Shown piece after piece: positions 7,557 through 63,500 of a stretch of 64,000 bases of DNA. The position numbers and the translations under genes were made by a program. The DNA comes from a virus. The stretch lies in the IMG/VR virus record IMGVR_UViG_3300042691_046823. The stretch is one strand, 5' to 3'. The notes beneath the pieces were generated by a model that saw nothing but the letters and a program-made list of their open reading frames with translations, searched no databases and was not told the origin of the DNA. Position 1 is the stretch's first letter, and each line of letters opens with the position of its first letter.

Positions 7557-7599
7557 TATCACCAAAATGCACTGCTAACACTTGGTATTAGAATTTAGG

Positions 7600-7654
7600 T
7601 ATAAATATCTATACCAAGTTCTTGGCAGTCCACACTACCGCAACGGTATAAATA
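7600..7654 (+). promoter_or_regulatory. two T4-like late promoter motifs
   Basis: TATAAATA at 7600-7607 and 7647-7654. Confidence 0.5.
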
Positions 7655-7680
7655 ACTTTAGAAGCATTTTGGAGAAATCA

Positions 7681-8700
7681 ATGACCGCACCAAAAAAAAT
7701 CCGCTGGCTGATCGCACATCAACCACAACATCTTTTCGTCCGTACTGCACGAGCCTTCAATGAAGAATTAGAACGCTTGATGCCTGGGCAGTTTGAAGTA
7801 GAAATCCTGACCTACCAAGATTACAAAGATCGCTACGGCGATATTGAGGGTCTTGCAGGGTTAGACGCAGTAGATGAAGCCGGTGATCACAATTGGGAAA
7901 AATACGGCACACTGATGACCCAGGGCATGAACGCATTTTGGCGTGCTATCCAAGATGGGGCATTTGAAATGAGCCAGATCCAGGTAAATCGTGTAGGCGA
8001 GATCAGCAATGATTTCGCGGCCTTGGACCTGCCCTTTTTGTTTGATGATCACGACCATGTCAGTCGAGTAGTGGATGGTGAAATTGGCCGAGAGATGCTG
8101 GCCAAACTGAGCCAAGAATCTGGAGTGCGTGGATTAGCATTCACTTACAGCGGCGGGTATCGAGTGATCGGCAGCAACGAACCTATCACGAGTCTGGATG
8201 ATCTTCAAGCATTCAAGGTGGTGGTAGAAAATGATATTTCAATCCAGCAAACGTTGAATTCGTTAAATGTACCGTCGGTCGTCATGCCGTCGAGCTTGTG
8301 GAAAAAATTTGATCCTATCAACAGCGGCAAGGCAGACGCCATGGAAACCACTTATCTGCGCTTCTATGGCAAGCATGTGCTCAAAACAAATCATAGTGTG
8401 TTCATGACCACAGTTTTGGCCAACAACCATTTCTGGCACAGCCTTGATGAAGACCAACAACAGGCGTTTTTATCAGCGGCCCAATCTACCGCGGCTATAG
8501 AGCGCCGCTGGAGTTTGGAGGATGCCGAAAAGTTCGAACGCGATGCAAAAGCCAATGGCGTGACGATACACGATATGACCGAATCTGACAAACAAAAATT
8601 GCGCAAGCATGCTCGGATCAGTTATGTTGCTGCCACGACCAAGACCAAGAATGGTGTTTCACCTGAATTGGTATCTCGCATCCGCCGTACTGTACACTGA
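7681..8700 (+). CDS. TRAP transporter substrate-binding protein, DctP-like, without signal peptide
   Basis: LDLPFLFDDHDH, GGYRVI, PITSLDDL, FWHSLDEDQQQAF motifs; GGAG SD before ATG 7681. Confidence 0.85.
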   Translation: MTAPKKIRWLIAHQPQHLFVRTARAFNEELERLMPGQFEVEILTYQDYKDRYGDIEGLAGLDAVDEAGDHNWEKYGTLMTQGMNAFWRAIQDGAFEMSQIQVNRVGEISNDFAALDLPFLFDDHDHVSRVVDGEIGREMLAKLSQESGVRGLAFTYSGGYRVIGSNEPITSLDDLQAFKVVVENDISIQQTLNSLNVPSVVMPSSLWKKFDPINSGKADAMETTYLRFYGKHVLKTNHSVFMTTVLANNHFWHSLDEDQQQAFLSAAQSTAAIERRWSLEDAEKFERDAKANGVTIHDMTESDKQKLRKHARISYVAATTKTKNGVSPELVSRIRRTVH

Positions 8701-9858
8701 TCATTCCAAAGCATAGATATTGATACAGCCCTTGACCCCTTTGGTGGGGTCAAGTGGATCGTTCAACCAATAATTTCCCAATCGTCGGACCCACTCTCTA
8801 ATGCCTGACTTGGCAAGGTCCACGGTGGCATTGTTTTGCTGGCGCCAGAACCATTCGTCCCTATGTCCAACCAACATATCACGAGGTTTGGGCTGAACCA
8901 ATGTGGATGAATCCCATCCAGGATAGATCAATTCGTTGAAAGCGTTGATGCTAAGATACCTACCGTGTCGACGACTCCGAGGACAAAATCCCGATTCGGG
9001 ATGATCGGTATACCAGGCAGGATCAGCATGATCATGTTCTAACACACGCCGTAACACATGGCACTGTTTGGCCACCAAGGCAGCGGTGTATGGGCTCCAG
9101 TAGAACCATTCATCGAAATAACCCTGGTCAGCCAAACTCTGGATTCGTATGTTGGTTTCACTGAATGAATCCTGGAACATCACATGATAGCGGTTGTCTT
9201 TCAATGTCATGCGAGGTTTTTCTGTGCCCCAGACAAAGACCATCCTGCGACCCGAATCCATGATTCGACGATAGTCAGCAATGTCATCGCGTAGATAGCT
9301 GCGGGCCAGGCTGTTGGCCGAAGCCATGCTCTTGGTATTGTAGATAAAATCAAATCTGATATCATGCCGAGAGTACAGCCCATCAATGCAGTCGCTGAGA
9401 TCTATCACGCGATGTCGTATGTTGGGGTACCGTTGCACTATTTCTTGCGTGCGCGGTATAGCAGTAAAAAAGGTTTCCTCGTTGAAATCGCTGTGCTTGT
9501 TGCCGCCATCAGCTTTGAGGCTGTGGCAGTGTGCGATTTCGTCGATGGGTATGTTATTTGATAGAAAGGAGTTAAGAATGTTCCATGAATCAGCACCACC
9601 GCTGTACCATATAACCACGTAGTCATAGCTGTCTCTTATCTGTTGCGCACGCTGGCGATATAACTCATTCAGGGGTTGGGGTGGTTCTTGCAACCAATTA
9701 TGGCTGCTCATCTGGATCTCGTTGAAATGCCATTCCAGATGTTGGCCCGTGCGGCGCATTTCTTCGATGGCCAAAAGTTTGCTGTGGGTCCGGAACCTAT
9801 CACCTACTGTGTAGTAACCAAACTGATCGCCGGAATATTGTATGGTCTGGAGTGTCAT
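8701..9858 (-). CDS. PP-loop (adenine nucleotide alpha-hydrolase-like) protein
   Basis: YSGGADS motif; paralogue of 17433-18665. Confidence 0.75.
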   Translation of the reverse strand: MTLQTIQYSGDQFGYYTVGDRFRTHSKLLAIEEMRRTGQHLEWHFNEIQMSSHNWLQEPPQPLNELYRQRAQQIRDSYDYVVIWYSGGADSWNILNSFLSNNIPIDEIAHCHSLKADGGNKHSDFNEETFFTAIPRTQEIVQRYPNIRHRVIDLSDCIDGLYSRHDIRFDFIYNTKSMASANSLARSYLRDDIADYRRIMDSGRRMVFVWGTEKPRMTLKDNRYHVMFQDSFSETNIRIQSLADQGYFDEWFYWSPYTAALVAKQCHVLRRVLEHDHADPAWYTDHPESGFCPRSRRHGRYLSINAFNELIYPGWDSSTLVQPKPRDMLVGHRDEWFWRQQNNATVDLAKSGIREWVRRLGNYWLNDPLDPTKGVKGCINIYALE

Positions 9859-9901: not shown

Positions 9902-10792
9902 ATGAAAAAACTCGTATTAGCAGTAGTCATGTTAGTATCATCCCACGTGGCCATGGCCAAAGACACCTTGTCGATCATCTGGCCTTTTGGCCCGGTGGCT
10001 GCCACCTTGCCTGTAAGGAGCATGATAGATAATCACAACCGTACAGGGCAATCTCCCACACTGATCTTGGAGTTCAAACAAGGTGCCGGCGGAGTGGTAG
10101 CCACGCAACATGTGCTGTCCAGTTCCGAACCCATTATCTACTATGCGTCGGCCGGATTTTTTTTGTACAATGCCTTTGCAGAAAAACAGGCCTATGATGT
10201 GAACAAGTTCATGACCCTTAAACATCTTTGCGACTTGCCAGTGACCGTGGCCAGCAAGAAGTTTCCTTCCATGCGAGCTATCCCATCTGATCGCCCTGTG
10301 ACCGTGGCTACCACCGGCACAGGCAACGGTTTCCATTTGGTATTCAAGGCCTTGCAACGACAGTATCCTAACATGATCGAGATTGCCTACAAGGGCAGTG
10401 CAGATGGCATCAAAGATCTGCTGGGCGATCATGTGGACATGATCATTGCCACACCGGGAGATACCTTTCCGTTGGAGGACAACAAACTGGCCAAGAACAT
10501 TGGCGTGACCGGTTCCAGCCGCGTGCGCAGTATCCCTACGCTGACCGAATCTTTGATTCCAAACACTCAGCGCCTGACCATAGGTTACTATTTCTTCCTG
10601 GACCAGAGATTCGCTGATCGTGCCGAATCCTATCGCAAGATTTTGGACACCAGTGTGGACAACAACACCAAGGAGATCATGGCTAAGAATCACTGTGTAC
10701 CGGCCACTACCTCTGCGGCACAACTGCCAGGCTTCATCCAGAACGCCCAGACTTTTTGGAACCAACAAGCGGCTGCTGTGCGCACCAAATAA
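9902..10792 (+). CDS. Bug/TctC-family tripartite tricarboxylate transporter substrate-binding protein
   Basis: Signal peptide; GAGGVVA, YKGSADGIKDLLGDHVD, IPTLTE motifs. Confidence 0.85.
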   Translation: MKKLVLAVVMLVSSHVAMAKDTLSIIWPFGPVAATLPVRSMIDNHNRTGQSPTLILEFKQGAGGVVATQHVLSSSEPIIYYASAGFFLYNAFAEKQAYDVNKFMTLKHLCDLPVTVASKKFPSMRAIPSDRPVTVATTGTGNGFHLVFKALQRQYPNMIEIAYKGSADGIKDLLGDHVDMIIATPGDTFPLEDNKLAKNIGVTGSSRVRSIPTLTESLIPNTQRLTIGYYFFLDQRFADRAESYRKILDTSVDNNTKEIMAKNHCVPATTSAAQLPGFIQNAQTFWNQQAAAVRTK

Positions 10793-10857: not shown

Positions 10858-10886
10858 TTGACAAGATATAAATAAACCCATACAAT
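10858..10886 (+). promoter_or_regulatory. sigma70 promoter with nested late-promoter motif, driving the leader and tRNA array
   Basis: TTGACA-17-TACAAT; TATAAATA at 10867-10874. Confidence 0.75.
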
Positions 10887-10896
10887 AGATACTATT

Positions 10897-11025
10897 ATGG
10901 AACTTAGCACTTCATTATCAATATCGCACAAGCATCTGATGTTTGGTTGTCAGCCAACATGGGTTGGATGCCTATCAGTGTATACTCGTGCGATCGAGGA
11001 CAATGATAGTGGAGGGTCTGTGTAG
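10897..11025 (+). CDS. putative attenuator leader peptide (42 aa, all 20 amino acids)
   Basis: MELSTSLSISHKHLMFGCQPTWVGCLSVYTRAIEDNDSGGSV*; starts about 4 nt after the predicted TSS; stop lies in the antiterminator arm. Confidence 0.7.
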   Translation: MELSTSLSISHKHLMFGCQPTWVGCLSVYTRAIEDNDSGGSV

Positions 11026-11058
11026 ATAACTTAGTATCAAGTTTTTTACAAAGACCCT
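11013..11058 (+). promoter_or_regulatory. antiterminator hairpin
   Basis: 11013-11032 pairs with 11039-11058 at 18 of 20 positions in one register and overlaps the 5' arm of the terminator. Confidence 0.75.
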
Positions 11059-11088
11059 GGATCGAAAGATACCAGGGTTTTTTATTTT
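11050..11088 (+). terminator. intrinsic terminator (attenuator)
   Basis: ACCCTGG-ATC-GAAA-GAT-A-CCAGGGT followed by TTTTTATTTT. Confidence 0.85.
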
Positions 11089-11094
11089 ACAAGG

Positions 11095-11271
11095 ATGAAG
11101 ATGAACAATGTTTGTGAATTTGGATGTGAATGCGATAGCTCGGTGTTCAAAAATTTTGAGACAGTATTAGATCCCATGGATCTCGACCGATTGATACAGG
11201 ATAAGATAGCCAGAGCTCGCAGATACATCGAACTACAGGAGAACATCGGCAAAAAAGTTCAAGCCGATTGA
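11095..11271 (+). CDS. small hypothetical protein, first gene after the attenuator
   Basis: 58-aa ORF (alternative start 11101 with AAGGA SD); CEFGCEC near the N-terminus. Confidence 0.55.
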   Translation: MKMNNVCEFGCECDSSVFKNFETVLDPMDLDRLIQDKIARARRYIELQENIGKKVQAD

Positions 11272-11419
11272 TTTCTAAGACGCCTAAACGCAACGAGGGT
11301 GAGTGCCGGCGTCAAATAAATTGGCCTAACGGGCGGACCGGTGGATGGAGTTCTTCTTGTAGAACAAAAAATACCGGCGATAGCCAAGCACATTCCAACA
11401 AGTGTGCTTCGCTATCTAT

Positions 11420-11493
11420 CGCGGGTTAGAGAAATGGTATCTCGGGAGTCTCATAAGCTCCAGTTGGCGGTTCAACTCCGTCACCCGCAACCA
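11420..11493 (+). tRNA. tRNA-Met(CAT), initiator-like
   Basis: Cloverleaf, anticodon CAT, C1-A72 mismatch, encoded CCA. Confidence 0.9.
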
Positions 11494-11497
11494 ACAT

Positions 11498-11581
11498 GGA
11501 GAAGAAGCATCAATGGTGATGCACTGGACTGTAAATCCGGCGCCTCGGGCACGACTGGTTCGATCCCAGTATTCTCCACCA
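11498..11581 (+). tRNA. tRNA-Tyr(GTA)
   Basis: Cloverleaf with long variable arm, loop CTGTAAA, encoded CCA. Confidence 0.93.
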
Positions 11582-11585
11582 ATAA

Positions 11586-11660
11586 GGTCCTATAGTTTAT
11601 CGGTTAGAATTCCGCCCTGTCACGGCGGGGGGACGAGTTCGATTCTCGTTGGGACCGCCA
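11586..11660 (+). tRNA. tRNA-Asp(GTC)
   Basis: Loop CTGTCAC, TTCGA T-loop, GCCA end. Confidence 0.93.
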
Positions 11661-11667
11661 TTTGTAT

Positions 11668-11741
11668 TCCGGTGTGGTATAATGGCATTATGGCGGTCTC
11701 CAAAACCGTTGATGGGGGTTCGATTCCCTCCACCGGAGCCA
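11668..11741 (+). tRNA. tRNA-Trp(CCA)
   Basis: Loop CTCCAAA, GCCA end. Confidence 0.92.
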
Positions 11742-11749
11742 AGTTTTAT

Positions 11750-11824
11750 GCACCGTTCGTCTATCGGTTAGGACACCGCCCTTTCACGGCGGGAAGAGGA
11801 GTTCGATTCTCCTACGGTGTACCA
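11750..11824 (+). tRNA. tRNA-Glu(TTC)
   Basis: Loop CTTTCAC, ACCA end. Confidence 0.93.
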
Positions 11825-11831
11825 CAACAAT

Positions 11832-11909
11832 GCATCGGTACCAGAGAGGCCCAATGGCGAGGTCTGCAAAACCTTCGATTCGCTGGTTCGAATCCAGCCC
11901 GATGCTCCA
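11832..11909 (+). tRNA. tRNA-Cys(GCA)
   Basis: Loop CTGCAAA, U73 discriminator, CCA end. Confidence 0.92.
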
Positions 11910-11998: not shown

Positions 11999-12220
11999 AT
12001 GAAACTCTTGACCGCAATCGTTGCATCCGCATTTGCTGTAACCGCTTTCGCACAAGCACCAGCACCTGCCAAGAAAGACGAAAAGAAAGCCGCGCCTGCT
12101 GCCGCAACCGCATCTGCAAAGGATGCCAAGCCGGCCGCTCCTAAAAGTGACGCTAAAGCAGCCCCTGCCAAAAGCGACGCTAAAAAGGACGATAAAAAAG
12201 CCGAAGCCGCTAAGAAGTAA
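11999..12220 (+). CDS. exported Ala/Lys/Pro-rich low-complexity protein
   Basis: AAAGGAAA SD; signal peptide ending AFA-Q; KSDAK repeats. Confidence 0.85.
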   Translation: MKLLTAIVASAFAVTAFAQAPAPAKKDEKKAAPAAATASAKDAKPAAPKSDAKAAPAKSDAKKDDKKAEAAKK

Positions 12221-12434
12221 TCCTTCGAGGTATCTTCTACTACATGTACAGAACGATGACTTTGGTTTTTGGATCGATGACGAATCCATACATGTAGGAT
12301 ATAGAAAACCTTCGTTGACAAAGAAAGACATTCCCGTTGATGATCTTTCTGAACAAGTGAAGTTCCGTTTGTGGTTGGCCAGGCAACTGGCCCTTATGAA
12401 AGCAAGCGGGTATGACCTGAGAACCCAGATCTAA
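12123..12434 (+). CDS. hypothetical protein overlapping the preceding gene in another frame
   Basis: Protein-like C-terminus DDLSEQVKFRLWLARQLAL ending at a terminator; start uncertain. Confidence 0.45.
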   Translation: MPSRPLLKVTLKQPLPKATLKRTIKKPKPLRSNPSRYLLLHVQNDDFGFWIDDESIHVGYRKPSLTKKDIPVDDLSEQVKFRLWLARQLALMKASGYDLRTQI

Positions 12435-12452
12435 TCTGGGTTTTCTTTTTTT
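12421..12452 (+). terminator. intrinsic terminator
   Basis: AACCCAGAT-CTA-ATCTGGGTT followed by a T-run. Confidence 0.8.
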
Positions 12453-12537
12453 AAAAACCGGGGTGTATTGAATCCCGGTTATATCGATTTACTTTGGGAG
12501 CAGGACACCGCAGGGACGAATTGTTCCTGGGACACCA

Positions 12538-12566
12538 TTGACACACATATCAAGATATAGTATAAT
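12538..12566 (+). promoter_or_regulatory. sigma70 promoter
   Basis: TTGACA-17-TATAAT perfect consensus. Confidence 0.85.
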
Positions 12567-12595
12567 TACTTGTCGTCACTATCAAGGAAAAAAAC

Positions 12596-12832
12596 ATGGC
12601 AAGGATCACCAGCGAAGAAGCCAGTGCGGCTGTAGGCAGTCATTATGATCTCGTGCTCATAGCCAGTCGGCGTGTGCGCGAATTGAGAAATGGATATGCT
12701 CCTGAGATCACCGATGTACACAGAAGTGAAATCGTGACTGCATTGAGAGAGATTGAGCAGGAAAAAATCGGCAGAGATTATCTACTAAAAAATCCCGAAA
12801 TCCAACGCGACACCAAAAGGAAAGCCAAATGA
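12596..12832 (+). CDS. rpoZ: RNA polymerase omega subunit
   Basis: MARIT..., YDLVLIASRRVREL, VTALREIE. Confidence 0.9.
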   Translation: MARITSEEASAAVGSHYDLVLIASRRVRELRNGYAPEITDVHRSEIVTALREIEQEKIGRDYLLKNPEIQRDTKRKAK

Positions 12833-12990
12833 AAAAACCTGGATCAAATTACAAGATGAGCAAGGCCGGCAAGATCAGTCTTGCGGTGAACTGGAATCGT
12901 CCGCACAAGTCCGCACGTCGTCGAGGAATAGTGCAGGCCGAGTTGTACGGTTCAGAAGTGATCAAAAGCAAACGAGAAAACCAAAAGTAG
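12829..12990 (+). CDS. small basic protein (53 aa)
   Basis: ATGA coupling to rpoZ. Confidence 0.55.
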   Translation: MKKPGSNYKMSKAGKISLAVNWNRPHKSARRRGIVQAELYGSEVIKSKRENQK

Positions 12991-12999
12991 ATACGGTTC

Positions 13000-13073
13000 G
13001 CCCCTTTAGTTAAATGGTATAACAGTTGATTTGTAATCATCAATTGGCAGTTCGATTCTGTCAAGGGGCACCA
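13000..13073 (+). tRNA. tRNA-Thr(TGT)
   Basis: Loop TTTGTAA, acceptor GCCCCTT/AAGGGGC, ACCA end. Confidence 0.9.
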
Positions 13074-15330: not shown

Positions 15331-15489
15331 ATGAAATTATGGGAAGCCACTGTGAGAGATCCCGGACCCGGAACACAAGAACGTACCGTGCGCATAGGGG
15401 CCGAAACTGCCGAAGAAGCCCGGCACCGATTGCAGGAGTTGTATGGACCAAGATCGATTCCCTATCTGCCTCGACTGGTTCCGCAATAA
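15331..15489 (+). CDS. small hypothetical protein (52 aa)
   Basis: MKLWEATVRDP...LQELYGPR; preceded by TAAATA. Confidence 0.55.
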   Translation: MKLWEATVRDPGPGTQERTVRIGAETAEEARHRLQELYGPRSIPYLPRLVPQ

Positions 15490-15499
15490 GTAGTACAGT

Positions 15500-15830
15500 A
15501 GTGATATTGTTGTATGAAGCAAGCCGAAAAATGTGCAAGACGCGGGGGCAGCACCCGCCGGCTCCACCAAGAGAGGATTTGACATGGAACTATATACCGA
15601 ACGCGATTGGCAACGTATCGTAGGCTGGGGTATGTGTCCAGAACATCTCAAGATCAAGTCTTCTGTTGATGGGGCCGAACCAGGATCGATTGTGCAAAGA
15701 GTAAGTGAGCAGACAACACGAGAGTCGACTGACGTAATCAGCGAAAAACCATAAACGCCAACGACGACGTTTACGCATTGGCCGCTTGACGGCTTGCTGA
15801 GGTAGGACATACCAAGAAACAGAAAACACC
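15500..15830 (+). ncRNA. ssrA: circularly permuted two-piece tmRNA
   Basis: Acceptor piece ends GGCTCCACCA (15569); coding piece starts GGGGCCGA (15671); tag ANDDVYALAA* at 15757-15789; AGCAAGCCG/CGGCTTGCT inter-piece helix; outer ends approximate. Confidence 0.9.
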
Positions 15831-15853
15831 AGCCCGCCTTGGCGGGCTTTTTC
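15831..15853 (+). terminator. intrinsic terminator
   Basis: AGCCCGCC-TT-GGCGGGCT followed by TTTT. Confidence 0.8.
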
Positions 15854-15869
15854 AGCAAATTATCACAAC

Positions 15870-16832
15870 ATGAAAAAAATCTTTGTTTCTATTTTGATCA
15901 TCGTGGTCACTTGGCCAGCCTGGGCTTGGACACCACAACGATCCATCACTGTGTATATTGGTTACAGCGCCGGCAGCACAAACGAGCAAGTGTTTCGTAA
16001 AGTCACTGAGATAGTCACAGAAAACAATCCAGATGTCAAGTTCTTGATACAAACACGCCCTGGAGCCGATGGTGTCATAGCACAGAATCACTTGTCTACC
16101 CAGCCCGCTGATGGATACCATATCTCGGTGCCCAGCGTGGTCAGCTTGTTCGTGGCCAATGATATCTGGCAAAAGTCCACTAAAACCTATGACTGGGATA
16201 GTTTCATTAATCTGGCTATCATGGGAGAAACTCCTTCGGCTGTGATAGCCCACATAGACAGCAAGATCAACTCACCCCGTGACTTGGTGACCTATTTCAA
16301 AAATCCACAACGTCCAGTCAACGTGGCTATATCCGGAGGTACAGGACGAATCGCTTACGAATATTTCATGCATGTGATCAGCGGAGATCGTGACAAGATC
16401 CAGCATGTGAACTATCAAAACGCTGGACAGACTGTGTTAGCAGTGGCCAGCAAAGAAGTCGATTACAGTTTCGTACCAGTGACCGCGGCCAGGGCTGCCG
16501 TGGATTCTGGCAAGGTAAAGATAATTGCTGTCACATCCTCGGCTCGCTTGACAGCCCTATCTGAAGTCAGCATCTTGGCAGACGTGTTACCAGGATTTGA
16601 AATCTATTCTGGTTGGTTCGTGACCTTGCCAAAACAAACTGATCCGGCTGCCGTTGCCTGGTATCAGAGAGAATTCAGTCGGGCCATACGTAGCGATAAG
16701 TACAGGCGCTGGGCCGATGCTAATCTTATCATAGTAAACGAGCGGAGATTGGATCCAGTATCTGTGAAATCATATGCCGAAAAAATCAGGCGAGATCTTT
16801 TGCCTGCCACACAAAAAATCCGTCCCGAATAA
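15870..16832 (+). CDS. Bug/TctC-family substrate-binding protein
   Basis: Signal peptide; RPGADGVIA, PADGY, GKVKIIAVTS motifs. Confidence 0.88.
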   Translation: MKKIFVSILIIVVTWPAWAWTPQRSITVYIGYSAGSTNEQVFRKVTEIVTENNPDVKFLIQTRPGADGVIAQNHLSTQPADGYHISVPSVVSLFVANDIWQKSTKTYDWDSFINLAIMGETPSAVIAHIDSKINSPRDLVTYFKNPQRPVNVAISGGTGRIAYEYFMHVISGDRDKIQHVNYQNAGQTVLAVASKEVDYSFVPVTAARAAVDSGKVKIIAVTSSARLTALSEVSILADVLPGFEIYSGWFVTLPKQTDPAAVAWYQREFSRAIRSDKYRRWADANLIIVNERRLDPVSVKSYAEKIRRDLLPATQKIRPE

Positions 16833-51568: not shown

Positions 51569-54500
51569 TTATTCGCCCCGGATGAACCTCGCAGCCAGGG
51601 TATCCGTGACCTGCAGTGGTTGTCCATTGCTGGGTGTACCGTTTCCGGGTTGATACCAACTCTGGGCTATGGTTGTGGGCATGTCGTAGTTGCTAAGATC
51701 GTACCCACCTATGCCAAATCCGGGATATGTTTGATTCTGATACTGTGCAGGTAAGAGGTTGCCCAAACCAATATCATATACCCAGGCTCCGGGTGCATGC
51801 TCTGACGCACCAGTGCCAGCGGTACCACGGCGCAGACCAAACACTGCTCCCGCAATGGTGAACGACACACGCACAGTGTAACCTATGGGTGGGACTGTAA
51901 GGAATTGTACTGCTATCCAATCGTCGTTGTTCAACACCACATAGGGCGCGGAAACTTCGACGCCGCCGGGTGTGACCAATACGGCTGTCAAGATACCTTG
52001 TCCAAGCAGGGTATAGTTGGCTCCGCCCAAGGTATAGATCGATGCTCCTGTGCTGATCTCTTCTAAGGCAGCGGTTTCACGGAAGCGATAAGTGATTCGC
52101 TCACCGTCTATAGTGATCTGTCCAAATATGCCATCCGGTAGATTGGGTTGACTCAGATGACTGACCTGTTCTACATAGACCACATCTGATGTGCTCATGA
52201 CCTGTGCCACGGTCTTGGTCGTGGTCTCTGGGGTTATGCGATAAACCAACTGTTCTCCACGCATGTCTTGGAATATGCGGAAAGCTTCAGCATCAGGTGT
52301 GATGCTCTGTGTGAAGTTTGTAATGGCCACCACGGATGCTGGGTTGATCGGTGGTCCGGATATGACCACGGCTGTGCCATCCACGTACCAATCTTGATAG
52401 GGGAATAGATATTCGTTGTCAATGGTAATCAGGAGTCTGTTTGGATTGTCAATGACTCGTCCGGTATCAAACACATTGGTCAGTATTATGGTTCCTGTTC
52501 CTTCATCAAATGTGGAATCCACAAACGGTGTGCCTTGATCATAGCGTGTGGTATCATAGCCAACGTTGATCTGTGAGCCCTGTGTAGTAGGGCCTACAAA
52601 GACTTGGGTTAGGATATTTTGCTGGCTGGTATCGTTGAAAGTAGTGAATGTCACTACATCTCCCAACAGCGGCAAGAGACTGGCCGTGGGTTTATAGATT
52701 AGTGTAGATCCATCAAGATAGTAATCTGCGGCATGATCCACAGAGATCAGAAGTTGAGCGCCAGGCTCAGGATCAAAACTCAAGGTGATAGTACGGTCTG
52801 AACTGCCATCATATGGATCTAACACAAACTGCACACCATAGGTCAAAGGAGTGTTGTCGATCCAGGCGTAAACTTCGTTGTTACCTATGAGTCCTTGATC
52901 GTATCCACCTCGATTGGGCAAGAAATATGTTCGGCTACTGCCATCCACGGTCCACTGAATGCCTTCGGGTGGTCTGGCTCTACGCCCGTTGATTTCAACC
53001 ACGAGATTGGCAGGGTTGGTACCTTGCACACTGTTGTCCAAGGTCCAGGTCAGTGTGCTGCCGTCGGCGATTTCAGCCTGTATGACCGGAGAACTCCAAT
53101 CGTGTGTATATGAATCTTCTTCCAGGCCCATGGCTGCTATGGTCAGCAATTGTGTGTCGTTGTAAGTATTGTTCAGGGTCAGCAAGGTCTGTGTAGTAGA
53201 GTATTGGCTGAATGTATAAGCAGTAGTTGGTTCTCCATTGACATAGATAGCAAATCTATCAATCTGCGCATATGGATACTCCACTATGACGCCATCGTTG
53301 ACTTGATCTCCAATGATGCTGTTTTTCCAAACCTGATTGCCGCCACCCAGGCCATACACATTGATCTGCAGGCTTTCGCCATCCACGATGCCACCCAATA
53401 TGGTCACTGTGCGTGTCGGCCAATTTACAATAAATTGAACGTCTCTTATGAGTCGTAGACCCCAGGTAGCGTTGTAGATTTCAATGACTGTGGGATAATC
53501 TACCAGGTTGGCCCAACTGTACACAGGGCTGGTACTGTCATAAGTGTAGCCCAGCACACGCAAGGGGAATCCATGACCGTCCATCTGCCAGTCTGCACCC
53601 GGTGTGGTAAACACACGCAGATCCAGGGTATCAAATATTATGCCAGGAACCAACTCTTCCGGTGCATGGCTTTCATAGGTATCTACGAAAGCGCCGCCGT
53701 CAACATTGATATCCGTGTCGGCTGTGCCCGTGGGTATTGGGCCTGTGGCCGGCGTTCCAAAGTAACTTTCATAGATAGCATCCAGGATCGCTGGATCGTA
53801 TGTAGGGCGCCCCTCAGGACCATAACTGATGTTGTCATAAGGATTGATGTCATAATTGCCCACATCAAATCCGGTGTTCTGATTGAAATCTGGCGCATCT
53901 ACCTGAACTCCTGGATAGTCTATGCCAGTCATCAACAGCGCAAGATCCAGACCAGGCTCGTTGGGGCCAGGAGTGTAGTAACCTTGGGTGCGATCAACGC
54001 CATTGAGATCCCCTGCTGGTACCAGAGTCCATTGTTGCGGATCAAAAGTTGGGCCCACCACGGCAGTGCTGTCGGTGCTGGAAGCCGACCAAACTTTATC
54101 TGCGTATCGTACCAAGGTACCATCCTCGTACTGCACATTTGGTTCCCAGTTAACTACCTGGCTTGTGTACTCATATCGATCAAACTTGATGGTAGTAGTA
54201 AAAGATCGCACCAGTGTGTAATAGATCTCAGTGGGGTCTGTAGGATCCCCAGCACTGAAGTCACGTCCGATACCGGTTCCTGTCATCACAGGCACAGCCA
54301 CAGCACCCTGACCGTTGCCGCCTTCCAAGGTCACAGCAGGTGTTACGATATAGCCACTGCCGGGCACAACGATTTCGATCTGCCCTACTTGACCACCGCC
54401 CAACAGACGTGCCACAGCCAATGTACGGGTACCCGCATAGGCCAGTGTGGTTGTACCGTTGACCCTGCTGCCACTGGTAAATCTTGGTTCGCTTTGGCCC

Positions 54501-57500
54501 GAAACCCCGGCCACTGTAACGGTATACAGATTGTTGTTGAAGAACAACTGCTGGCCTTGAGCGTAGGCTGTGTTTTTCTGCCATTCTGTTCCCACTATCA
54601 CTGTGGGAGGCACGGTGTATCCTGTGCCACCATCGACCGTGGTTATAGACTGTACTGCCAGGGTGTAATTGTTGAACCATTGATCCCAGGGGAACGTTGT
54701 CCAGACTGGATCTGTGCTTGGCACGCTGGATGTTGTGCTGAGAGGCTCTAATGGATCATCATCTAACACCGGTGATATAAACATGGATTCAGCGGTGTCA
54801 TAATAAGCCGGTAGATCAAAGTCAGTCAGGCTGCCTTGATATGCATCATTGCCTCGATATATGAGATTGAACTCGCGTATTTGCACGTGATATGGTTTGA
54901 CCTCTTGGATGTAATCTAGCACAAAGTCTTGATTGTCTCGGCGATATATTTGATATGGTTCAAGGTCTCGAATCACATGGTCTACGTCAATCAATGACGT
55001 CTTGGTCAACCAAAGTGGTGCCACTTGTTCTTGCAAGATAAAGTTGAACATCAACACTAACAGACGATTTCGCTCGATGCCAAGATCATCTATGAAAATT
55101 TCTTCATTGAGACTGCGGATGATGTTGCGGGTTTCAATCACGGGTTCTTGGTCAAAATATTGTGCATCAAATACTTCGACGTCAAAACCAAAACGTCCAA
55201 TGCTGTAATCCCAGATCTCTGCTTTTATTTCTATGGTACCGTCTTGTAACCCTACCCGAGTCCAGGTCGTGTTTTCCAGGAGATATATCTCCCATTTGTT
55301 GCCGCCGTTTGTAGTGACCTTGGCAGCACTGCCTGGTGGCAGATCCAACTGTGCCAGATCATTGAAATTGGCCACTTCTGCGCTGATCAGCTGGCGAGAA
55401 TTATATCCTGGCAAATACCAATCAATGTAGTTCCAATATAGATTGGTGTCATAGGTTTGTACCCGGACCAACAACAATTCTTTGCTGCCAAACGATGCGC
55501 CAGATACCACTTCATAGATAGTCCATAGGCCACTGTTGGTGCTGTCTGTGACCACCAGATACTTGTAGCCAATGGGCACGATTTCTAAATCTTGATAGGT
55601 AAGTTCGGCATAATCTGCCACTCGTTTGTTCCACTGACCACTGCTGACCGTGGGTTCGGGTTCTTGGCTTTGCAACAACGGGAATGTGCGTATCTCGCTG
55701 ATAGGATACAAGGACATCACTCTGTTGGCTCTTGTTAAGTAGTTTTCCAAGGCCAAGAATCTGTTGGCATACATGCTCTGACGAGGCCTGAACTGTACAC
55801 CATACAACTCGCTCACTGGCAAGAAAGGATCCGGAACCTTGTGTCCTTCGATGTCGGCACCACAGAAGCTGTCAAGGAACTTGCGATACAATAGGTCTGT
55901 GAGGAATCCGTCACGTCGATCTTGCGCAATAAGTTGGTATTCTACATACACTGGGGCATCGTTGGCTGTTTCATCAAATTCCACATGCAAAACTGTGTCT
56001 TGTGCTACGATGTATGGAAGGCCGTTGTATATGGCCACAGTGCTGGCATTGATAGGCGCGATATAAGCTATGCCCGAAGTCTTAGGATCCTGGATATAAC
56101 GGGCCACTGTTTCAATGCTGAGTGTTTTACGAGCCTTGCGATTGACTTCACGTATGCCGCTGACCCAGAAATAATACTGTGTACCAAATAAGCCTGCTTC
56201 GTTGATACTACTCAAAACAACATAGTTGTTGGTACTGCGCACTTGCCCAGGACCAGCATACTGTGCCGGAGGCACATCGCTGACCACCCATTGATAAACT
56301 TCTATAGTCGATCCTGGGAACAATTGAGCCCAGCGCCGGCTGGCATAAACGATATCATTCTGATTGGGATCGATGAATCGTGCATTTGTGGTATCCCACC
56401 AAATCTTGCCTACATAGCTTTCGCCCCAGCGCTCGCCATAGTTGTTCAGTGTACCCACATTGTACGCCGCAGGATCAACGCTACCTGTGTAGTCAATGTT
56501 TTGCTGTGCGGCTCCGAGTATCTTGCCCTGTAAAGGATCAATAAAATCAAAATACTGCCTCGAGGCTCCGCTGAATCTATCATACATGAACACGCTGTTT
56601 AATCGTGTGATATCAACCACGGGATTTTGGGTTCGTTTGGCCTGCCAGGCCGGTAGTCTCGCTATGTTAGCAAACTGTTGCACCTGTCCATAATTGGCTT
56701 CGGTAGAATCACCAAGATCTTCTCCTGGAGCACCAACCAATAATATGCCTGTGGTGTAATCTACTGCTGTGCCAAATCTTTCTAACGCAGTGATATCTGA
56801 ACTGTAAATCTGTTGGCCGAACACAAACTGACCTTGATTGGTTGCCGAAGCTGATGCCGCTGGCAAGAAGTCAAATATGTAGACCGCTCCGCTTTGTGTC
56901 ACGGTGTTGCTGAAAACACAGGTGTTGGCATCAAACACAGTGGTATTGTCATCAAAGGTTGCAAAACCTATGGTGCTGGCATCAGGCGCTCCTACCACAA
57001 GATTGGTGGCGGTTTCAGAAACAAACAAAGACTGTCCAAAATGTGCATAATCTTGCAACAACGGTGCGGTGATAGTTTGCACATCGATATAGGTCGTCAA
57101 CCCAAGATCCTGGAACACGGTTCCGGTGCCAGGCCCAACTCTCAATCTGTTAAATGTGAGGGTGGCATTGGCATTTTTTACAGAGATCGTGATGCGGCCA
57201 CCGATCACATTGATCTTGGTGTCATAGGCCGGTGTGAGATTGAATGTAATGGTCTGAGTGTCGTTGTTATAGGTGTAGTTTGTGTTCAATGTTTGCAATA
57301 CATTGTCCAAATATACCAATGGCGTGTAGCTATCGGCAGCGCTGTAAAGATCACCAATATTGAATTGTTGAGTGCGTCCGTTACTGATGAATTCTCTATT
57401 TTCCCCCACAGAAACTGTTACATTGGCCACGGCTGCATCCACGATGTCTTGGGCCAGCACAGTGGACCAGTTCACTGGTTTCCAGTATACTGTGTCAGTT

Positions 57501-60500
57501 ATGGCAGTTCCCACGGGTACTGTAACACGCGATTGATAGAGATCGCTGCCAATGGAAACTATGATATCTTTGGCATAGGCCAATCCACTGTTCCAGGCGG
57601 CAGGAGATGACACTTCTACAAAGATATTGTTTACAGACAGGTACTGTCCGGGTGTAAGCACGCAATTGCTTATGCTCGAAGTCAAGGTACCATATACACG
57701 ACCTTGATTGATCTTGTAATCCACATGGCCATGTTCTGGTATATCTTCGCCATAGTATGGTGCGCCAATGTAGAGACTGCAATCGTTGACGCACTGGTCC
57801 ACAGCATAACCATATTGATCGGCCGCCGCGGCTGCTGGATCCACGAGAGTCTGTTCTAAAGTGAATTGATTGGTTTCTACTGTGAGCACGTCTCCCACGG
57901 CAGGTGCTGTAACCATGGTGATTGTGTTGCCTGAAATAGAATATTGTCCACCCACGTTGTTTGCTTCGTCGACAAGCAATACGCTGTTGAGGAACACGTT
58001 GATTGGTTCCCCAGGATTAGACAGGCTCTGAACTGTAGTAAACGTGGTATTGGTGCTGGTCTGTTGCACAAAGTTTTGTGTTGACCGGTCAAACACATAA
58101 ACCAATCCTTGATTGTTGGTTGCTCCAGGCGCGCCCACGATGAGTTTTCGACCATCGGTGGAAGTGCTTACCGAATAACCAAATCTCGCATCGGCAGATA
58201 AGCCAGCCACTGAGATCGAAGATACCTGTTTCCAATGTGTTTGACAAACCACATTGATAACTGCACCGTTGGTTGGGGCCTGGGTGAATACCAGATCTAT
58301 ACTGCTATCAGCACCAAAGGTATAATCGTAGTGAGGACGTTGGATCACATCGTTGATGTAAACCGAGAACGATTCTATGCTTGTTGCAAGGTATAAATTG
58401 TCCAACGAGTAAGTGGTAGTAGATCCGTCGCCTATGAAAAGCTCGCCCACTCGACGACTGATGACCAGGGTCTGTCCTTGTGTGGGCGTTGCCAACAGAT
58501 TAACGTTGGTGCCAGACACTGTGAAATCCACTCCCAAAGTTAGATTCACGTTGTTGAGATTCACTGCTAACTGTGTGCCATTGTTTACTACCACATGATC
58601 GCTGTAATTAAATTGTGATGTGCTACCGTCGCAAACATAACGAACGCTTTGCAATTGTATATCTTGCCGGCCGTAACAATACACGCGATTGATTCCAGGG
58701 CAGCCTACATACAACCAATACTCGTCTCGAGCCATGGTCACACTTTGACCAAACAATGCTCCAGGGGCTGTTTCACCGTCTGGCAACAACAATATCTGTG
58801 ATTGTAAGAAGGCATTAGTGGCCACAGGATTGTATATCACATAGGCATAACCACGATCACCAAGACTGCGTGGTGCTCCGACTACGGCATAGGTTTGATC
58901 GCCCATGTCCATGCTGCGACCAAAATCTTTTAATCCCTCGGTCAATGGCTCGATTAGGATACCTTGCTCATAGGCGTTGGTTGCCGCGGTCTTGACATAG
59001 GTGTAGACTGCACCAGTGGCCAACAAGGTGCTGTCATCCACGGCCTGTAGATATCCAGGGGCTCCCACCATGGCAGCAAGATTATTGAATCCTTGAGTCA
59101 CGCTGGCACCAAATTGACTACTGCTTTCAGGTTGCGCGATAGGCAACACATCACTGTATGTGAATGGATCGGTTTTTTCCAACACTGTCCAACGGCCGAA
59201 ACCGTTGTCATCTACCCAGACCTTGGCACCGGATCGGAGCACATTAACATAACTTAGAGTGCTGACATCTGATGCTTGAGCGACACGGGAAGTGGCCAAG
59301 GTAAATGCCACACCTTCTCCTATGATCTGTGTCTGGGTGCCCAAAAAAGCCAAGCCAATCAGCAAGGTGTCGAGACTGGGCACACCTAAAACTCGATATG
59401 TGCCATCAACCACAGGATCAAAATATCTGATCACGATGTAATCATTGACCTTTAAGCCATGTTGCGCAGTCATGGTTACCAAGGATCTGCCATTTAAATT
59501 ATCGCTGACCTGCACTACATCGCCAGGAACTTCCTGCAAACGATAGACTCCCCAGTCGTAGCGATTTTTCTTGGCCGTCCATATGGTATCACCTTCTGAA
59601 AGCTCATCGATCTGTTGATCCAGTGCCAATGAAGTGGCAGCAAAATCTTCAAGATCAAACACAGTAAAATCTACATCTTCAAGATCAACATATCCTGCCG
59701 ATGGAAGACTTGCATCTGTCTCTGGTTCCAACGTGGTTGGCATGATATTGGTAGTAGTGAATTTTTCGCTGGATTTCCACAAATCCTGTAGCAACACAGC
59801 CTGATCAGCTTCACTGATCTGCTGTGTTTGTACGATTTCTACCAGGCTGGGATCGGCACGCAATCTTGCTTCATTGAGCAAGATTTCAAAGTAATTGCGA
59901 TTGGCAGTGGCACCATAACTGCTACGCAACATGGCCCAGTATTCATAGATATTGTATTCTGCTGTTTCTTTGCCAAGATCTGCACGGTTGAATTGTTCCA
60001 GCGCACCAATGGTGCCTTTGGTTCCCAGGAACTGTTGATACAACTGTACCTGGCTGACATCGTCCAGGTTTAAATCCGACATGTACTGTCGCGGACGGAA
60101 TCCAATTAAACCATAGCTAAAGAGATCTACATCGGTTTCGAGATTGGCCTGGCTGACATCGTAGGCAGTGGCCAATTGATCGCTGGCATTGGCTGCATTG
60201 GGCAACAGCCCTTTCTGTATGAGATCGTAATCGGCCCGGATCCAGATGCTGTAGTCAAACTTGGCCGCGGGCTCGATGATACGGCTTGCCGTCCAATAAT
60301 CGTTCTTAAACAGCACTATCTCGCCCTTGGTATACTGCCGATTTGGTTGCCATTCTATGATGTTGTCAAGATTCAGCACGAATCCTGGTGCATTCACTGT
60401 GCCATTCCAGTCGCCGCTGATGATACCCGACGCTTGCACGCGGCTCTGCCGCGCCCCAGTCACAGGTGAGTAAATTAAATCAGCAAATATGCTGACATTG

Positions 60501-63500
60501 TCCAAGACCACTGTGCTTTCAAACTGTGTGAGTCTGGTGCTTAGGAAGTTGATCGTATTTTCGTTCAGCGTGGTCACGCTGAAGGTATTGTCCATGCGCT
60601 CTATGACCATCTGTTCCGATTTGATCGGGACACGGTTCTGATTGAGGATAAGATTTTCTGGTCGAGGTTCGGCCATGCTGTCTACTACGTAGCCAGGAGT
60701 ATCAAGAGTGGCCTTGATAGCCGATGGATTGAGGTTGATGATAGATCCTGGGGCCCAGCCTTGACCGCTCCAATAAAGGAATTCCTCGGCCATTTGGTAC
60801 CAATCCATGGTGTAGCCGTTTTCGCGTGTGGCGAATGTGAAGCCATTCAGCGTGAGATAACGACCATAGCTCAGTAAGAAATCACAAACAGCATTGACAT
60901 TGGTAAAGGTATAGCCATAGGGCACTTGCGCTGTATTATCACTATAGTCTACAGACACTCTGGCAGTGACATCGCCTGCTGTGATCAAGCGTAGATTGCC
61001 ATTGGGCAGGCTGGCATAGACAGTGAAATAGGGTTTGATCTGATTGTAACCAAACACCTGCCATCCTGTGTCACTGCGCTGGATGATCACGGAACTGTAG
61101 GTTATTTCGCGTGAGGTTTGATTTTTATACAACAGAACAGTATAACTTTCATCCGGCAGCAAGAGGCTGGCATTGAGACTGTTGGGTGTGCTACGCTCTG
61201 TGAATATCTTGAGATATCGCTTGTCACTGAAACCGCCCAGTCTCCAACACAATCTCACTCCAAGGTTAGACAGATCGATTTCAAGTTTTTTAGTACCGTT
61301 GGTACCCAACTGCCGATTGTAGTCGATGATCCAGTTGATATAACTTGCTTTGCTGGTGCCGTCACCATACAGTGGTGCCAAGCGTGTAGCATCTAATCGA
61401 TAGCGATTATTATAGAGATACTGATCCAACTCGCTGTTGAATGTATACAGATCTCTGTCGGCGAACAGGCTGAAAAATTTGGCTGGTTGTGTCAGCGCCA
61501 GCAATCGCATTACAGCAAACGGCCATGCGCTGGAGGTGCGCCAGGTATTTTCTACAGGGCCATCATCGCCAAACGCCCAGGATCTGCGGAAACTGGTGGC
61601 ATCATAGTTGCTGACCACGCTGTCTAATGGTGATACCAAGGCTCCCTCAGAGCCCGCCGGAATCACTGCCGACAGATCCGGACGTGCGTAGCGAGGTTTG
61701 TAATAAGGTTGCACGGGATCTCTAACCAGGCCCTGCGCCAGGTCATCCCACAGAACCAAGTTGCCATCGGTATAAGGAGCCGGTCCATAGTATGATTCCC
61801 ACCAATAGGGTTGTTGGCTGAATCCCAGCAGCTCCCAAGGTCTGGTATTGGGATATATTGTGTCATAAAAATAGTTGTAGATCCCGCGCCAAGCGCCCAG
61901 CAAAGGCTGCCGATTGAGTTTGTTTTGGCTCTGTGAATAATTGTAGGTAAACGGATCATCGCCAAGATAAGTCTGGCTTGGATAATCCAACTTGTTCCAA
62001 CCTACCCATGCCAAGAAGTCAGGTGCCAGGATGCTGTTGATCTCTGACAGAGAATAATCTGTGGTGCGGAACTGCCCAGGAATAACGTCTACCAGAGACA
62101 GCGGAATCTCTGTAACGATCTTGACGTTGTTAAAGATGCGTGTTTCAAATTCCAATAACACCTGATCTCGATAGTCACCAAACGCAACGGTAACGGAACC
62201 ATCATGCCCACGGATGACCATGGTCGGCGTGACAAAAGTTTCATCCAGGTACATCTCAGGTCTATACACCGGGTACAGTCCCATCTTGGATGGTGTGTTG
62301 GGCACAAAGCTACCATAGGTGGTAGTATACTCGCGGATCTTGATGACGTCACCTACTTGCAAAGGAATCAACACCGTGAGAGTTGGTGTGTCCACTCCCA
62401 CGGTATATTCCGCGCCACGTTGTAGTATGGTGCCGTTGTAGTAAACCGATAGTCCTCGATAGTTGCTGTCGGTAAAATTAAAAGTTTCAGTGAGATCAAA
62501 CACATTGTCACTGATGTCGGTGAAATCGTATATCAGTTCAGTATAGGTTTGACCCCAGGGCAACATGTCCGACCAATAGAAAGGACTAACGCTGTCTCTT
62601 CCGGTGGCTATTTCTGATATTACCGAATCCAAGACCTGTGTGGGTGTGCTGTTGACATAATTGCCTCGGCTGGCAGCATCCAATAATCTTGCCTTGTATT
62701 TTTCATATTCCCGGCTGTTGAATTCTATAGCCGAGATCACTTCAAACTGACGCTGTCTCAAGAATGGCCCTAGCAAAGGCATAGGGCTGGCATGTTGCAC
62801 GATGTTTTCGCCGTAGCGCGAGATATCGCCAAGGTCGCGTGTGTTGTTGGAACCATCGATAGCGCCGCTGATGTTTTTGAGGTTTTGTCCAACGGTCTGG
62901 TAATGTGATCTAATGGTACCCAGGGTAAATTGATCACTGTTTTCATTCAGCGGGTTGTTGCTAAGATTTATTGGAACCTGGTAAAATCCTATGTCGCTGG
63001 CTACATCGCTCAAGACCTGTACTTCGATAACGGTACCAATGGCCGGAGGATTGATCAAGGTCACAGTGGTTTGGCTACCAGAAACAGTAACGACATAATC
63101 CTGCGGATTCAAGAATGATGCTTGCTGGAATACTTTGACCGACGGAAACACGCTGTCAGTGTCTGCTGGCACATCTAAAATCAAAGGCTCATTGTTGTAA
63201 ACAAATCTAAACTGCTGTCTGCTTCGTGCTGTTCCTGCAGCCGATTCCCAACCAATAAGACTGGTAAATGACACACGATCTATGTACTGCCGTGCAAATC
63301 CAAGACTGATGTTGACTTCTTTGCTGACCGAATCGGTGACATACAAAAAGGTGTCTTTGTAGAAGTTGTTTTCAAACAGTATGTCGCCAACGTTATTGAT
63401 GTTCAAGAATTTGAGACTGAACCCTAAGATCTGATCAACGATATCAGTTTCGCCAATGGCATAACTGAAAAGTTTAGTTCCAGCAAAGGTTGTGCTGGGA

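Follow-up and report, generated by a model that had tools for sequence, protein, structure and literature searches.

Why should a short open reading frame (ORF) that spells out all 20 amino acids stand between a promoter and a group of tRNA genes in a viral genome? Such a frame lies in IMG/VR virus record IMGVR_UViG_3300042691_046823, of which we analyzed one stretch of 64,000 nucleotides, referred to here as the window. An earlier reading of this DNA, made without database searches (the sequence-only reading), proposed that the ORF is a leader whose translation controls transcription of the six tRNA genes behind it. Our analysis leads to a related view: the locus is probably a ribosome-controlled transcription attenuator that gates a phage tRNA operon. 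Its parts are as follows.

10858-10886, plus strand: predicted sigma70-type promoter TTGACA-17-TACAAT, with 11 of 12 consensus matches
10867-10874, plus strand: T4-late-type sequence motif TATAAATA, inside the sigma70-type promoter
10892-10905, plus strand: predicted protector segment (from folds), the leader start region, able in ribosome-free RNA to base-pair with the 5' arm of the antiterminator
10897-11025, plus strand: leader ORF of 42 codons, with 20 amino acid types and 36 distinct codons (from the ORF reading and a family of homologues)
10930-11004, plus strand: leader codons 12 to 36, the shortest stretch with all 20 amino acids
11013-11058, plus strand: antiterminator hairpin, 18 pairs, -20.0 kcal/mol
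11023-11025, plus strand: leader stop codon, within the antiterminator 5' arm
11050-11088, plus strand: intrinsic terminator, hairpin -18.4 kcal/mol, T-run from 11078
11095-11271, plus strand: 58-amino-acid (aa) ORF, the first gene past the switch
11278-11400, plus strand: conserved noncoding segment that probably forms a structured RNA (its like occurs in more than 12 leader loci)
11420-11493, plus strand: tRNA-Met(CAT), with an initiator-like C1-A72 mismatch (ARAGORN, Rfam)
11498-11581, plus strand: tRNA-Tyr(GTA) (Rfam; relaxed ARAGORN)
11586-11660, plus strand: tRNA-Asp(GTC) (ARAGORN, Rfam)
11668-11741, plus strand: tRNA-Trp(CCA) (ARAGORN, Rfam)
11750-11824, plus strand: tRNA-Glu(TTC) (ARAGORN, Rfam)
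11832-11909, plus strand: tRNA-Cys(GCA) (ARAGORN, Rfam)

The promoter, the 42-codon ORF, the complete stretch at codons 12 to 36, the hairpin, the terminator, the small ORF, and the six tRNA genes all lie where the sequence-only reading had placed them. The leader is near-leaderless, its ATG standing 10 nt past the -10 box, and nine amino acid types occur in it once each; it matches no family in Pfam or NCBIfam. Positions 11050 to 11058 are common to the 3' arm of the antiterminator and the 5' arm of the terminator. A simple terminator scan of the window did not list the 11050-11088 terminator, and ARAGORN at default settings missed tRNA-Tyr(GTA), which was found with Rfam.

How surprising is one such leader? 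The sequence-only reading had put the chance that a given 25-mer holds all 20 amino acids at about 4.5e-5; the arithmetic is right, but the 25-residue stretch was chosen afterwards, so the figure overstates the case. With equal frequencies, 42 residues contain all 20 types with P = 0.053, and a complete 25-residue window occurs somewhere within a random 42-mer with P = 4.8e-4. Completeness of the window ORF has P = 0.013 against phage proteins and P = 0.045 against codon-position shuffles, and one of the 144 ORFs of 35 to 50 aa in the window holds all 20 amino acids. Judged by these numbers the window locus alone is only suggestive, and it is comparison with its homologues that lifts the case far above chance.

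The first search for this family used a DNA pattern for the hairpin arms only, blind to composition, and returned 22 loci from viral sequences; a promoter, a near-leaderless ORF of 32 to 43 codons, and a stop codon 10 to 11 nt into the antiterminator arm were present in 21 of them. Wider patterns and a neighbor-gene search, under composition-blind rules, gave 83 distinct leaders. Because the hairpin patterns demanded part of the pairing, the search was repeated with a promoter-only pattern. This returned 27 ORFs with a terminator after them, all of 31 to 49 aa, all with the upstream arm, and with stop-to-terminator distances of 50 to 61 nt; tRNAs lie downstream of 12 of the 12 leaders with enough sequence, compared with 9 of 56 other ORFs. 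The family now totals 109 distinct leaders, 39 with 20 amino acid types and 93 with at least 18. The stop codon (TAA in 62, TAG in 46, TGA in 1) is held at +10/+11 of the antiterminator arm in most loci. Only 5 of the 109 leaders have a Shine-Dalgarno (SD)-like motif, 68 of the 109 start with Met-Met, and TAAATA lies at most 40 nt upstream in 68 of the 83 leaders, a set not selected on promoter. The attenuation geometry seen earlier at a single locus is thereby borne out by homologues with promoter, short ORF, stop in the antiterminator arm, terminator, and tRNAs, and the comparison that the sequence-only reading had proposed, of regions upstream of tRNA arrays in related phages, reveals a short ORF with high amino acid coverage despite divergence, a fixed stop, and covarying stems.

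Pattern matches at the 3' ends of longer genes (e.g., loci L125 and L137) were set aside as chance. Searches of the leader region against cultured phages by blastn and tblastn yielded nothing real. A pattern scan of GTDB gave chance terminators plus two loci, L489 and L571, with no bacterial chromosomal example among the matches listed. The leaders on these two GTDB contigs (L489 is filed under a Haliscomenobacter metagenome-assembled genome) are near-identical to viral ones, and both are probably phage contigs binned with a bacterial genome.

The amino acid content of the leaders departs strongly from expectation. The 83 leaders hold a mean of 18.86 types, compared with 16.06 under a phage-protein null and 17.17 under a shuffle null, and 33 of them are complete where 0.84 (phage proteins) and 2.24 (shuffles) are expected. 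The excess is also seen in random subsets of less than 50% identity (10.9 of 30.6 complete versus 0.24 and 0.78 expected) and in the promoter-only set (7 of 27 versus 0.41). The two shifted frames of the 83 leaders give 0 and 1 complete sets with 3 to 4 stops each, while the true frame is open in all 83; none of 26 long genes behind the same promoter is complete in its first 38 residues. The ratio of nonsynonymous to synonymous substitution rates (dN/dS) is 0.38 (26 disjoint pairs). Within an amino acid, sole-copy residues change about half as often as duplicated residues of the same kind (odds ratio, 0.55), and residues lost from aligned columns are present elsewhere in 113 of 135 cases versus 78 expected, an excess that alignment error can inflate. 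Among the closest relatives of the window leader, Phe occupies any of four alignment columns, and the positions of His, Cys, and Val vary too; the all-against-all regain count is not independent and serves as illustration only. Counts per amino acid are under-dispersed in nonredundant sets (variance/mean, 0.15 to 0.79). The leaders also use more distinct codons than synonymous resampling gives (31.5 versus 29.6, with 72 of 83 leaders above; 36 versus 31.2 in the window), and this excess variety fits sampling of isoacceptors. Together, these comparisons argue that the leader reading frame and its amino acid coverage are under selection, a case of selection on peptide composition rather than peptide sequence.

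The alternative stems are likewise preserved. At 19 of the 27 loci from the promoter-only search, the antiterminator helix scores significantly better than shuffled sequences, and in the same sample the hairpin interior, with the ends fixed, has z = -3.6. Among 64 nonredundant leaders, the shared arm changes jointly with both partners at several positions, and pair types swap. Cells are paired in 80% (antiterminator) and 94% (terminator) of cases, percentages that lean high, partly by selection, because stem partners were picked per sequence; a one-column slide lowers them to 54 to 63%. The covariation comes from an anchored count, with which a MAFFT alignment agrees but is partly out of register by one column. 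Conservation of mutually exclusive antiterminator and terminator stems is thus indicated by comparison across the family.

How such a switch might respond to a ribosome was modeled by folding the RNA with a ribosome walked along the leader, which reproduces thrL, trpL, and ilvL. At the window leader, the antiterminator is predicted to stay available for A-site codons 2 to 35, and the last sensing codon falls at 35 to 37 for footprints of 13 to 7 nt. The end of the codon 12 to 36 stretch coincides with the edge of this modeled sensing window, in agreement with the earlier remark that it ends near the edge of a stalled ribosome's footprint. The set is complete inside the sensing window with a footprint of 7 to 11 nt; a 13-nt footprint leaves the last Asn narrowly beyond it. 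The model also reproduces the proposal that a ribosome at the stop would mask the antiterminator and let the terminator win. The further proposal that a stall at any codon opens the switch is upheld by the model for codons 2 to about 35 to 37 and not for the last six to seven, which fall outside the sensing window. Across the 83 leaders, the antiterminator is available in 78 to 100% as long as the ribosome is at least 8 codons short of the stop; the share falls to 8% at a distance of 7 codons and is 4% at the stop itself.

Failed initiation had been expected to let the antiterminator form as well, and here the folds point the other way. In ribosome-free nascent RNA from the window, positions 10892 to 10905 pair with the antiterminator 5' arm with P = 0.94, compared with 0.56 in codon shuffles, and failed initiation at this leader may favor termination, not read-through. 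The family signal is weak and mixed: protector pairing is 0.63 versus 0.65 in shuffled RNA overall, and 0.41 versus 0.19 for the first 30 nt.

What a leader contains also follows what lies behind it. In 46 arrays of at least 8 tRNAs, read over 3.5 kb and including relatives that are not independent, an amino acid missing from the leader has its tRNA downstream in 8 cases versus 22.5 expected (permutation p ~0.01); at less than 50% identity, the count is 4.7 versus 12.5. Val is the residue most often absent from leaders, and tRNA-Val is rare in arrays. Loci with two leaders share out the set: the second leader of L124 lacks C, E, H, and Y, and those tRNAs follow the first leader.

This pattern extends to cultured phages, where examples came to light at the starts of tRNA arrays in genomes with an AAA ATPase related to that of the window. 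Salicola phage SCTP-2 (MF360958.1) has four leaders, at 296520, 303694, 308741, and 316197, which have no sequence in common and show amino acid runs. Each has as its most abundant residues those served by its own tRNA block (the best among 24 assignments), and jointly they hold 20 of 20; hypothetical genes 335 and 351 of the annotation correspond to the first two. The attenuators lie on two analyzed loci.

L704, 5521-5670: SCTP-2 leader attenuator
L704, 12695-12826: SCTP-2 leader attenuator
L704, 17742-17855: SCTP-2 leader attenuator
L705, 6198-6284: SCTP-2 leader attenuator

The first SCTP-2 leader is Asn-rich, yet no tRNA-Asn is called in its block, where a tRNA with an ATA anticodon call is found. 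Ralstonia phage RsoM2USA has one block-matched leader (L698, minus strand). Near-complete leaders are encoded by gp469 of Agrobacterium phage Atu_ph07 (42 aa, 18 types; L576, 8119-8247, minus strand; leader region at about 339040-339320 of NC_042013.1, minus strand) and by gene 599 of Sinorhizobium phage Phosso (54 aa, 19 types; L575, 5755-5919). Both head the main tRNA arrays of their phages with the same switch design, and both have an SD-like AAGGA upstream of the leader, unlike the lake family. Together, these comparisons indicate that a leader is a list of the amino acids served by the tRNA block behind it and that the leader with all 20, the pangram, is the limit case of one leader. The universal sensor envisaged in the sequence-only reading fits the window leader with its 20 types, but the rule of the family is the narrower one.

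In the mechanism that we propose, host RNA polymerase would begin transcription within a few bases upstream of the ATG, with a ribosome trailing it through the leader. With prompt decoding, the ribosome at the last six to seven codons is modeled to cover the antiterminator 5' arm; the terminator would then fold, and transcription would stop near 11080. A ribosome waiting at any codon from about 2 to 35-37, where a charged tRNA is short, would let the antiterminator fold first, and polymerase would go on to transcribe the small ORF, then the conserved RNA and all six tRNA genes. Selection, as the comparisons indicate, keeps at least one codon per monitored amino acid, and one leader with all 20 would be a readout of the whole charged-tRNA pool. 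The outcome would be a negative feedback loop on tRNA supply. We infer that the natural trigger is most likely tRNA loss in infection, through host anticodon nucleases, starvation, or heavy late translation, which are inseparable by sequence. Phage tRNAs have been described as replacements for tRNAs cut by host anticodon nucleases (PMC10264068), and such replacement would explain why a phage should make tRNAs on demand; in a term search, that paper showed neither a promoter of phage tRNA genes nor their control on demand.

Would a more general sensor of translation explain these observations as well? A leader coupled to ribosome supply, initiation rate, or ribosome drugs might use amino acids evenly merely to avoid bias, and the near-leaderless start without an SD sequence, the frequent Met-Met, and the ability of the start region to pair with the switch all suit it. 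There are precedents: in E. coli, the toiL leader responds to stalls at many positions (PMC12121999), and in S. meliloti, it is initiation to which the DUF1127 leader responds (10.1101/2025.01.31.635925). Such a sensor fails to predict that sole-copy residues are protected and replaced after loss, that missing residues track missing tRNAs, and that the SCTP-2 and RsoM2USA leaders are strongly biased and block matched. We regard it as unlikely; sensing of this kind may act alongside stall sensing. If instead the peptide mattered as a product, whether as a ribosome-arrest peptide or a trans-acting small protein with diversity as a side effect, the dN/dS of 0.38 would be accounted for, as would a single Trp kept in 98% of leaders, mostly at codons 18 to 24; trans roles are known for peTrpL (PMC7298713). 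Leader identity nevertheless falls to about 20 to 30%, near the shuffled background of 21%, residues shift between columns, and the SCTP-2 leaders lack a common sequence. In a test for arrest peptides, the lone conserved Trp varied least in its distance from the start (standard deviation, 3.7 codons, compared with 5.5 from the switch and 6.3 from the stop), unlike a tunnel motif. A role of the peptide itself is therefore very unlikely.

The same comparisons bear on whether the reading frame matters at all. An element acting purely as RNA, such as a leaky terminator or a protein-bound switch, would make the ORF incidental and its diversity a product of structure or base composition; the coding region does fold better than codon shuffles (mean z, -1.9; 13 of 30 below -2), and the whole region has z = -3.97. 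That the frame is open in every one of the 83 leaders while shifted frames carry stops and no completeness, that composition-matched shuffles give 2.2 complete leaders rather than 33, and that the stop is fixed within the arm in most loci make this explanation highly improbable. Chance or artefact would be compatible with the window ORF on its own (P = 0.013 to 0.053) and is refuted by 109 distinct conserved leaders, replicated in the promoter-only sample, which leaves it a negligible probability.

Several observations weigh against the attenuator reading that we prefer. The leaders are kin, and their counts are not fully independent. The window leader has no SD sequence, and no leader of this kind was detected in Paride, DC31, Serratia BF, or XacN1 by the leader finders used. 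Ribosome-walk folding is an equilibrium approximation and reproduces hisL poorly; for many stall positions, the terminator remains its favored fold once the RNA is full length. Its availability measure is lenient (0.53 for shuffled RNA versus 0.86 for real RNA), and what informs is therefore where the drop falls. Just 23 of the 109 leaders have their sets complete inside the sensing window if the footprint is 13 nt, compared with 62 to 65 at 7 to 9 nt. The window's 20-type leader stands before just six tRNAs; its closest relative, L023, with a leader 73% identical, has 16. The window array may thus have shrunk, or its sensor may cover more than the array supplies.

Promoters past the terminator also count on this side. 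The sequence-only reading had named transcription of the tRNAs from a separate promoter there as something that would refute it. The window has no such promoter, its best site between terminator and tRNAs matching at 7 of 12 positions, but 21 of 89 loci have a strong sigma70-type promoter between the terminator and the first tRNA; Phosso, too, has promoter-like sites in that interval. In one subfamily, a strong sigma70 promoter lies only 17 to 39 nt past the terminator (22 to 39 nt in L222, L228, L230, L244, L266, L276, L284, L291, L299, L306, and L308) and the leader is behind a late-type promoter only, so that attenuation there could do no more than supplement early transcription or take over from it. 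These phages may combine early constitutive with late attenuated tRNA transcription, the switch gating late transcription alone.

How does the leader compare with known attenuators? Like E. coli trpL, hisL, thrL, and ilvL, it is a short ORF with its stop in the antiterminator 5' arm and an arm shared with the terminator, and under ribosome-walk folding it behaves as they do, the multivalent leaders thrL (Thr/Ile) and ilvL (Ile/Leu/Val) included, although hisL is reproduced poorly. Enterobacterial leaders repeat one to three amino acids among 9 to 12 types and control biosynthetic enzymes, whereas the phage leader has all 20, mostly once, is near-leaderless, and precedes tRNA genes. Tandem runs of one to three regulatory amino acids are absent from the window leader and are found only in split leaders such as those of SCTP-2. 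The named leader families (Trp, His, Thr, Leu, Phe; Rfam, Pfam, and NCBIfam) gave no match at cutoff; an SCTP-2 leader scored 31.8 bits on Rfam Phe_leader (E = 0.0013), below the 55-bit cutoff. In the E. coli pheM-pheST attenuator, feedback on charged tRNA controls a component of the translation machinery; that leader senses Phe only and controls a synthetase, whereas the phage leader precedes tRNA genes. The T-box riboswitch is a terminator/antiterminator switch that binds one uncharged tRNA directly and needs no ORF. It resembles the proposed phage switch as a terminator/antiterminator device reporting tRNA charging and differs from it in that the phage frame is under selection; no Rfam T-box match was found in the window at E values up to 10. 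The toiL-topAI (PMC12121999) and DUF1127 (10.1101/2025.01.31.635925) upstream ORFs sense multiposition stalls or initiation and in this resemble the proposed phage sensor, and mycobacterial poly-Cys attenuators (10.1101/834739) are leaderless, as the phage leader nearly is. Unlike the phage leader, toiL works through translation control and Rho and senses antibiotics (PMC12121999). The abstracts on toiL, DUF1127, and poly-Cys leaders describe neither amino acid completeness nor tRNA genes as output.

In its gene content, the window resembles part of a large tailed phage. The closest matches to its AAA ATPase are in the Pseudomonas jumbo phages PA5oct and Paride (50%), in Phosso, and in Atu_ph07, and the window also encodes homologues of TctC, DctP, and the RNA polymerase omega subunit. 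A two-piece tmRNA of betaproteobacterial type suggests that the host is probably betaproteobacterial. Homologues of the 58-aa ORF sit behind the leaders of L001, L013, and L415, with no name in the protein collection, and a related-locus search with this ORF as the query returned no relative. Segments of the 11278-11400 type lie within tRNA arrays, often just past the attenuator, and occur also in L023, L355, L046, L210, L013, L331, L021, L001, L150, L201, L661, L266, and L018. They contain the motifs AACGAGG and AACGGGCGG, have two 3' variants and stems that appear to covary, and have no Rfam match. Other features of the window are as follows.

11999-12220, plus strand: 73-aa ORF, Ala/Lys-rich, its start resembling a signal peptide; probably cotranscribed with the tRNA genes (no Pfam match)
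12419-12455, plus strand: terminator, probably the end of the read-through transcript
12538-12566, plus strand: perfect sigma70 promoter, 3' of the 12419-12455 terminator
12538-13073: stretch with this promoter, the omega homologue (12596-12832, PF01192), a small ORF, and a separate tRNA-Thr(TGT) at 13000
15457-15854: two-piece (permuted) tmRNA, matching Rfam beta_tmRNA and tmRNA_permuted
7582-8700, 9902-10792, and 15870-16832: solute-binding proteins of the DctP/TctC families, the third TctC-like by eye only
8701-9858: one of the 385- to 430-aa enzymes that adjoin the solute-binding proteins, the one tested, with no Pfam match
51569-63985, minus strand: reading frame of more than 4,100 codons, probably a giant virion protein

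We found no description of such tRNA-gating leaders in the literature, including genomics papers on Atu_ph07, RsoM2USA, and jumbo phages, within incomplete journal coverage. On balance, we favor the view that this attenuator class is new to the accessible literature: checklist leaders, ranging from block matched to pangram, with which a phage senses tRNA-cutting defense or starvation and replies with its own tRNAs. Leaders are borne by cultured phages with laboratory hosts (Atu_ph07, Phosso, SCTP-2, and RsoM2USA), and a 200-nt pangram leader would serve as a simple reporter for tRNase activity or amino acid starvation. If our reading is true, the scope of attenuation grows from between one and three amino acids to the full 20, and tRNA genes join its outputs. 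Why phages carry tRNAs has been an open question for more than 50 years (PMC10264068). Phage tRNAs would, on the attenuator reading, be an on-demand rescue of a depleted pool, not a constitutive supplement to codon usage, and the stress that opens the switch would be the stress that the tRNAs answer, which makes the question testable.

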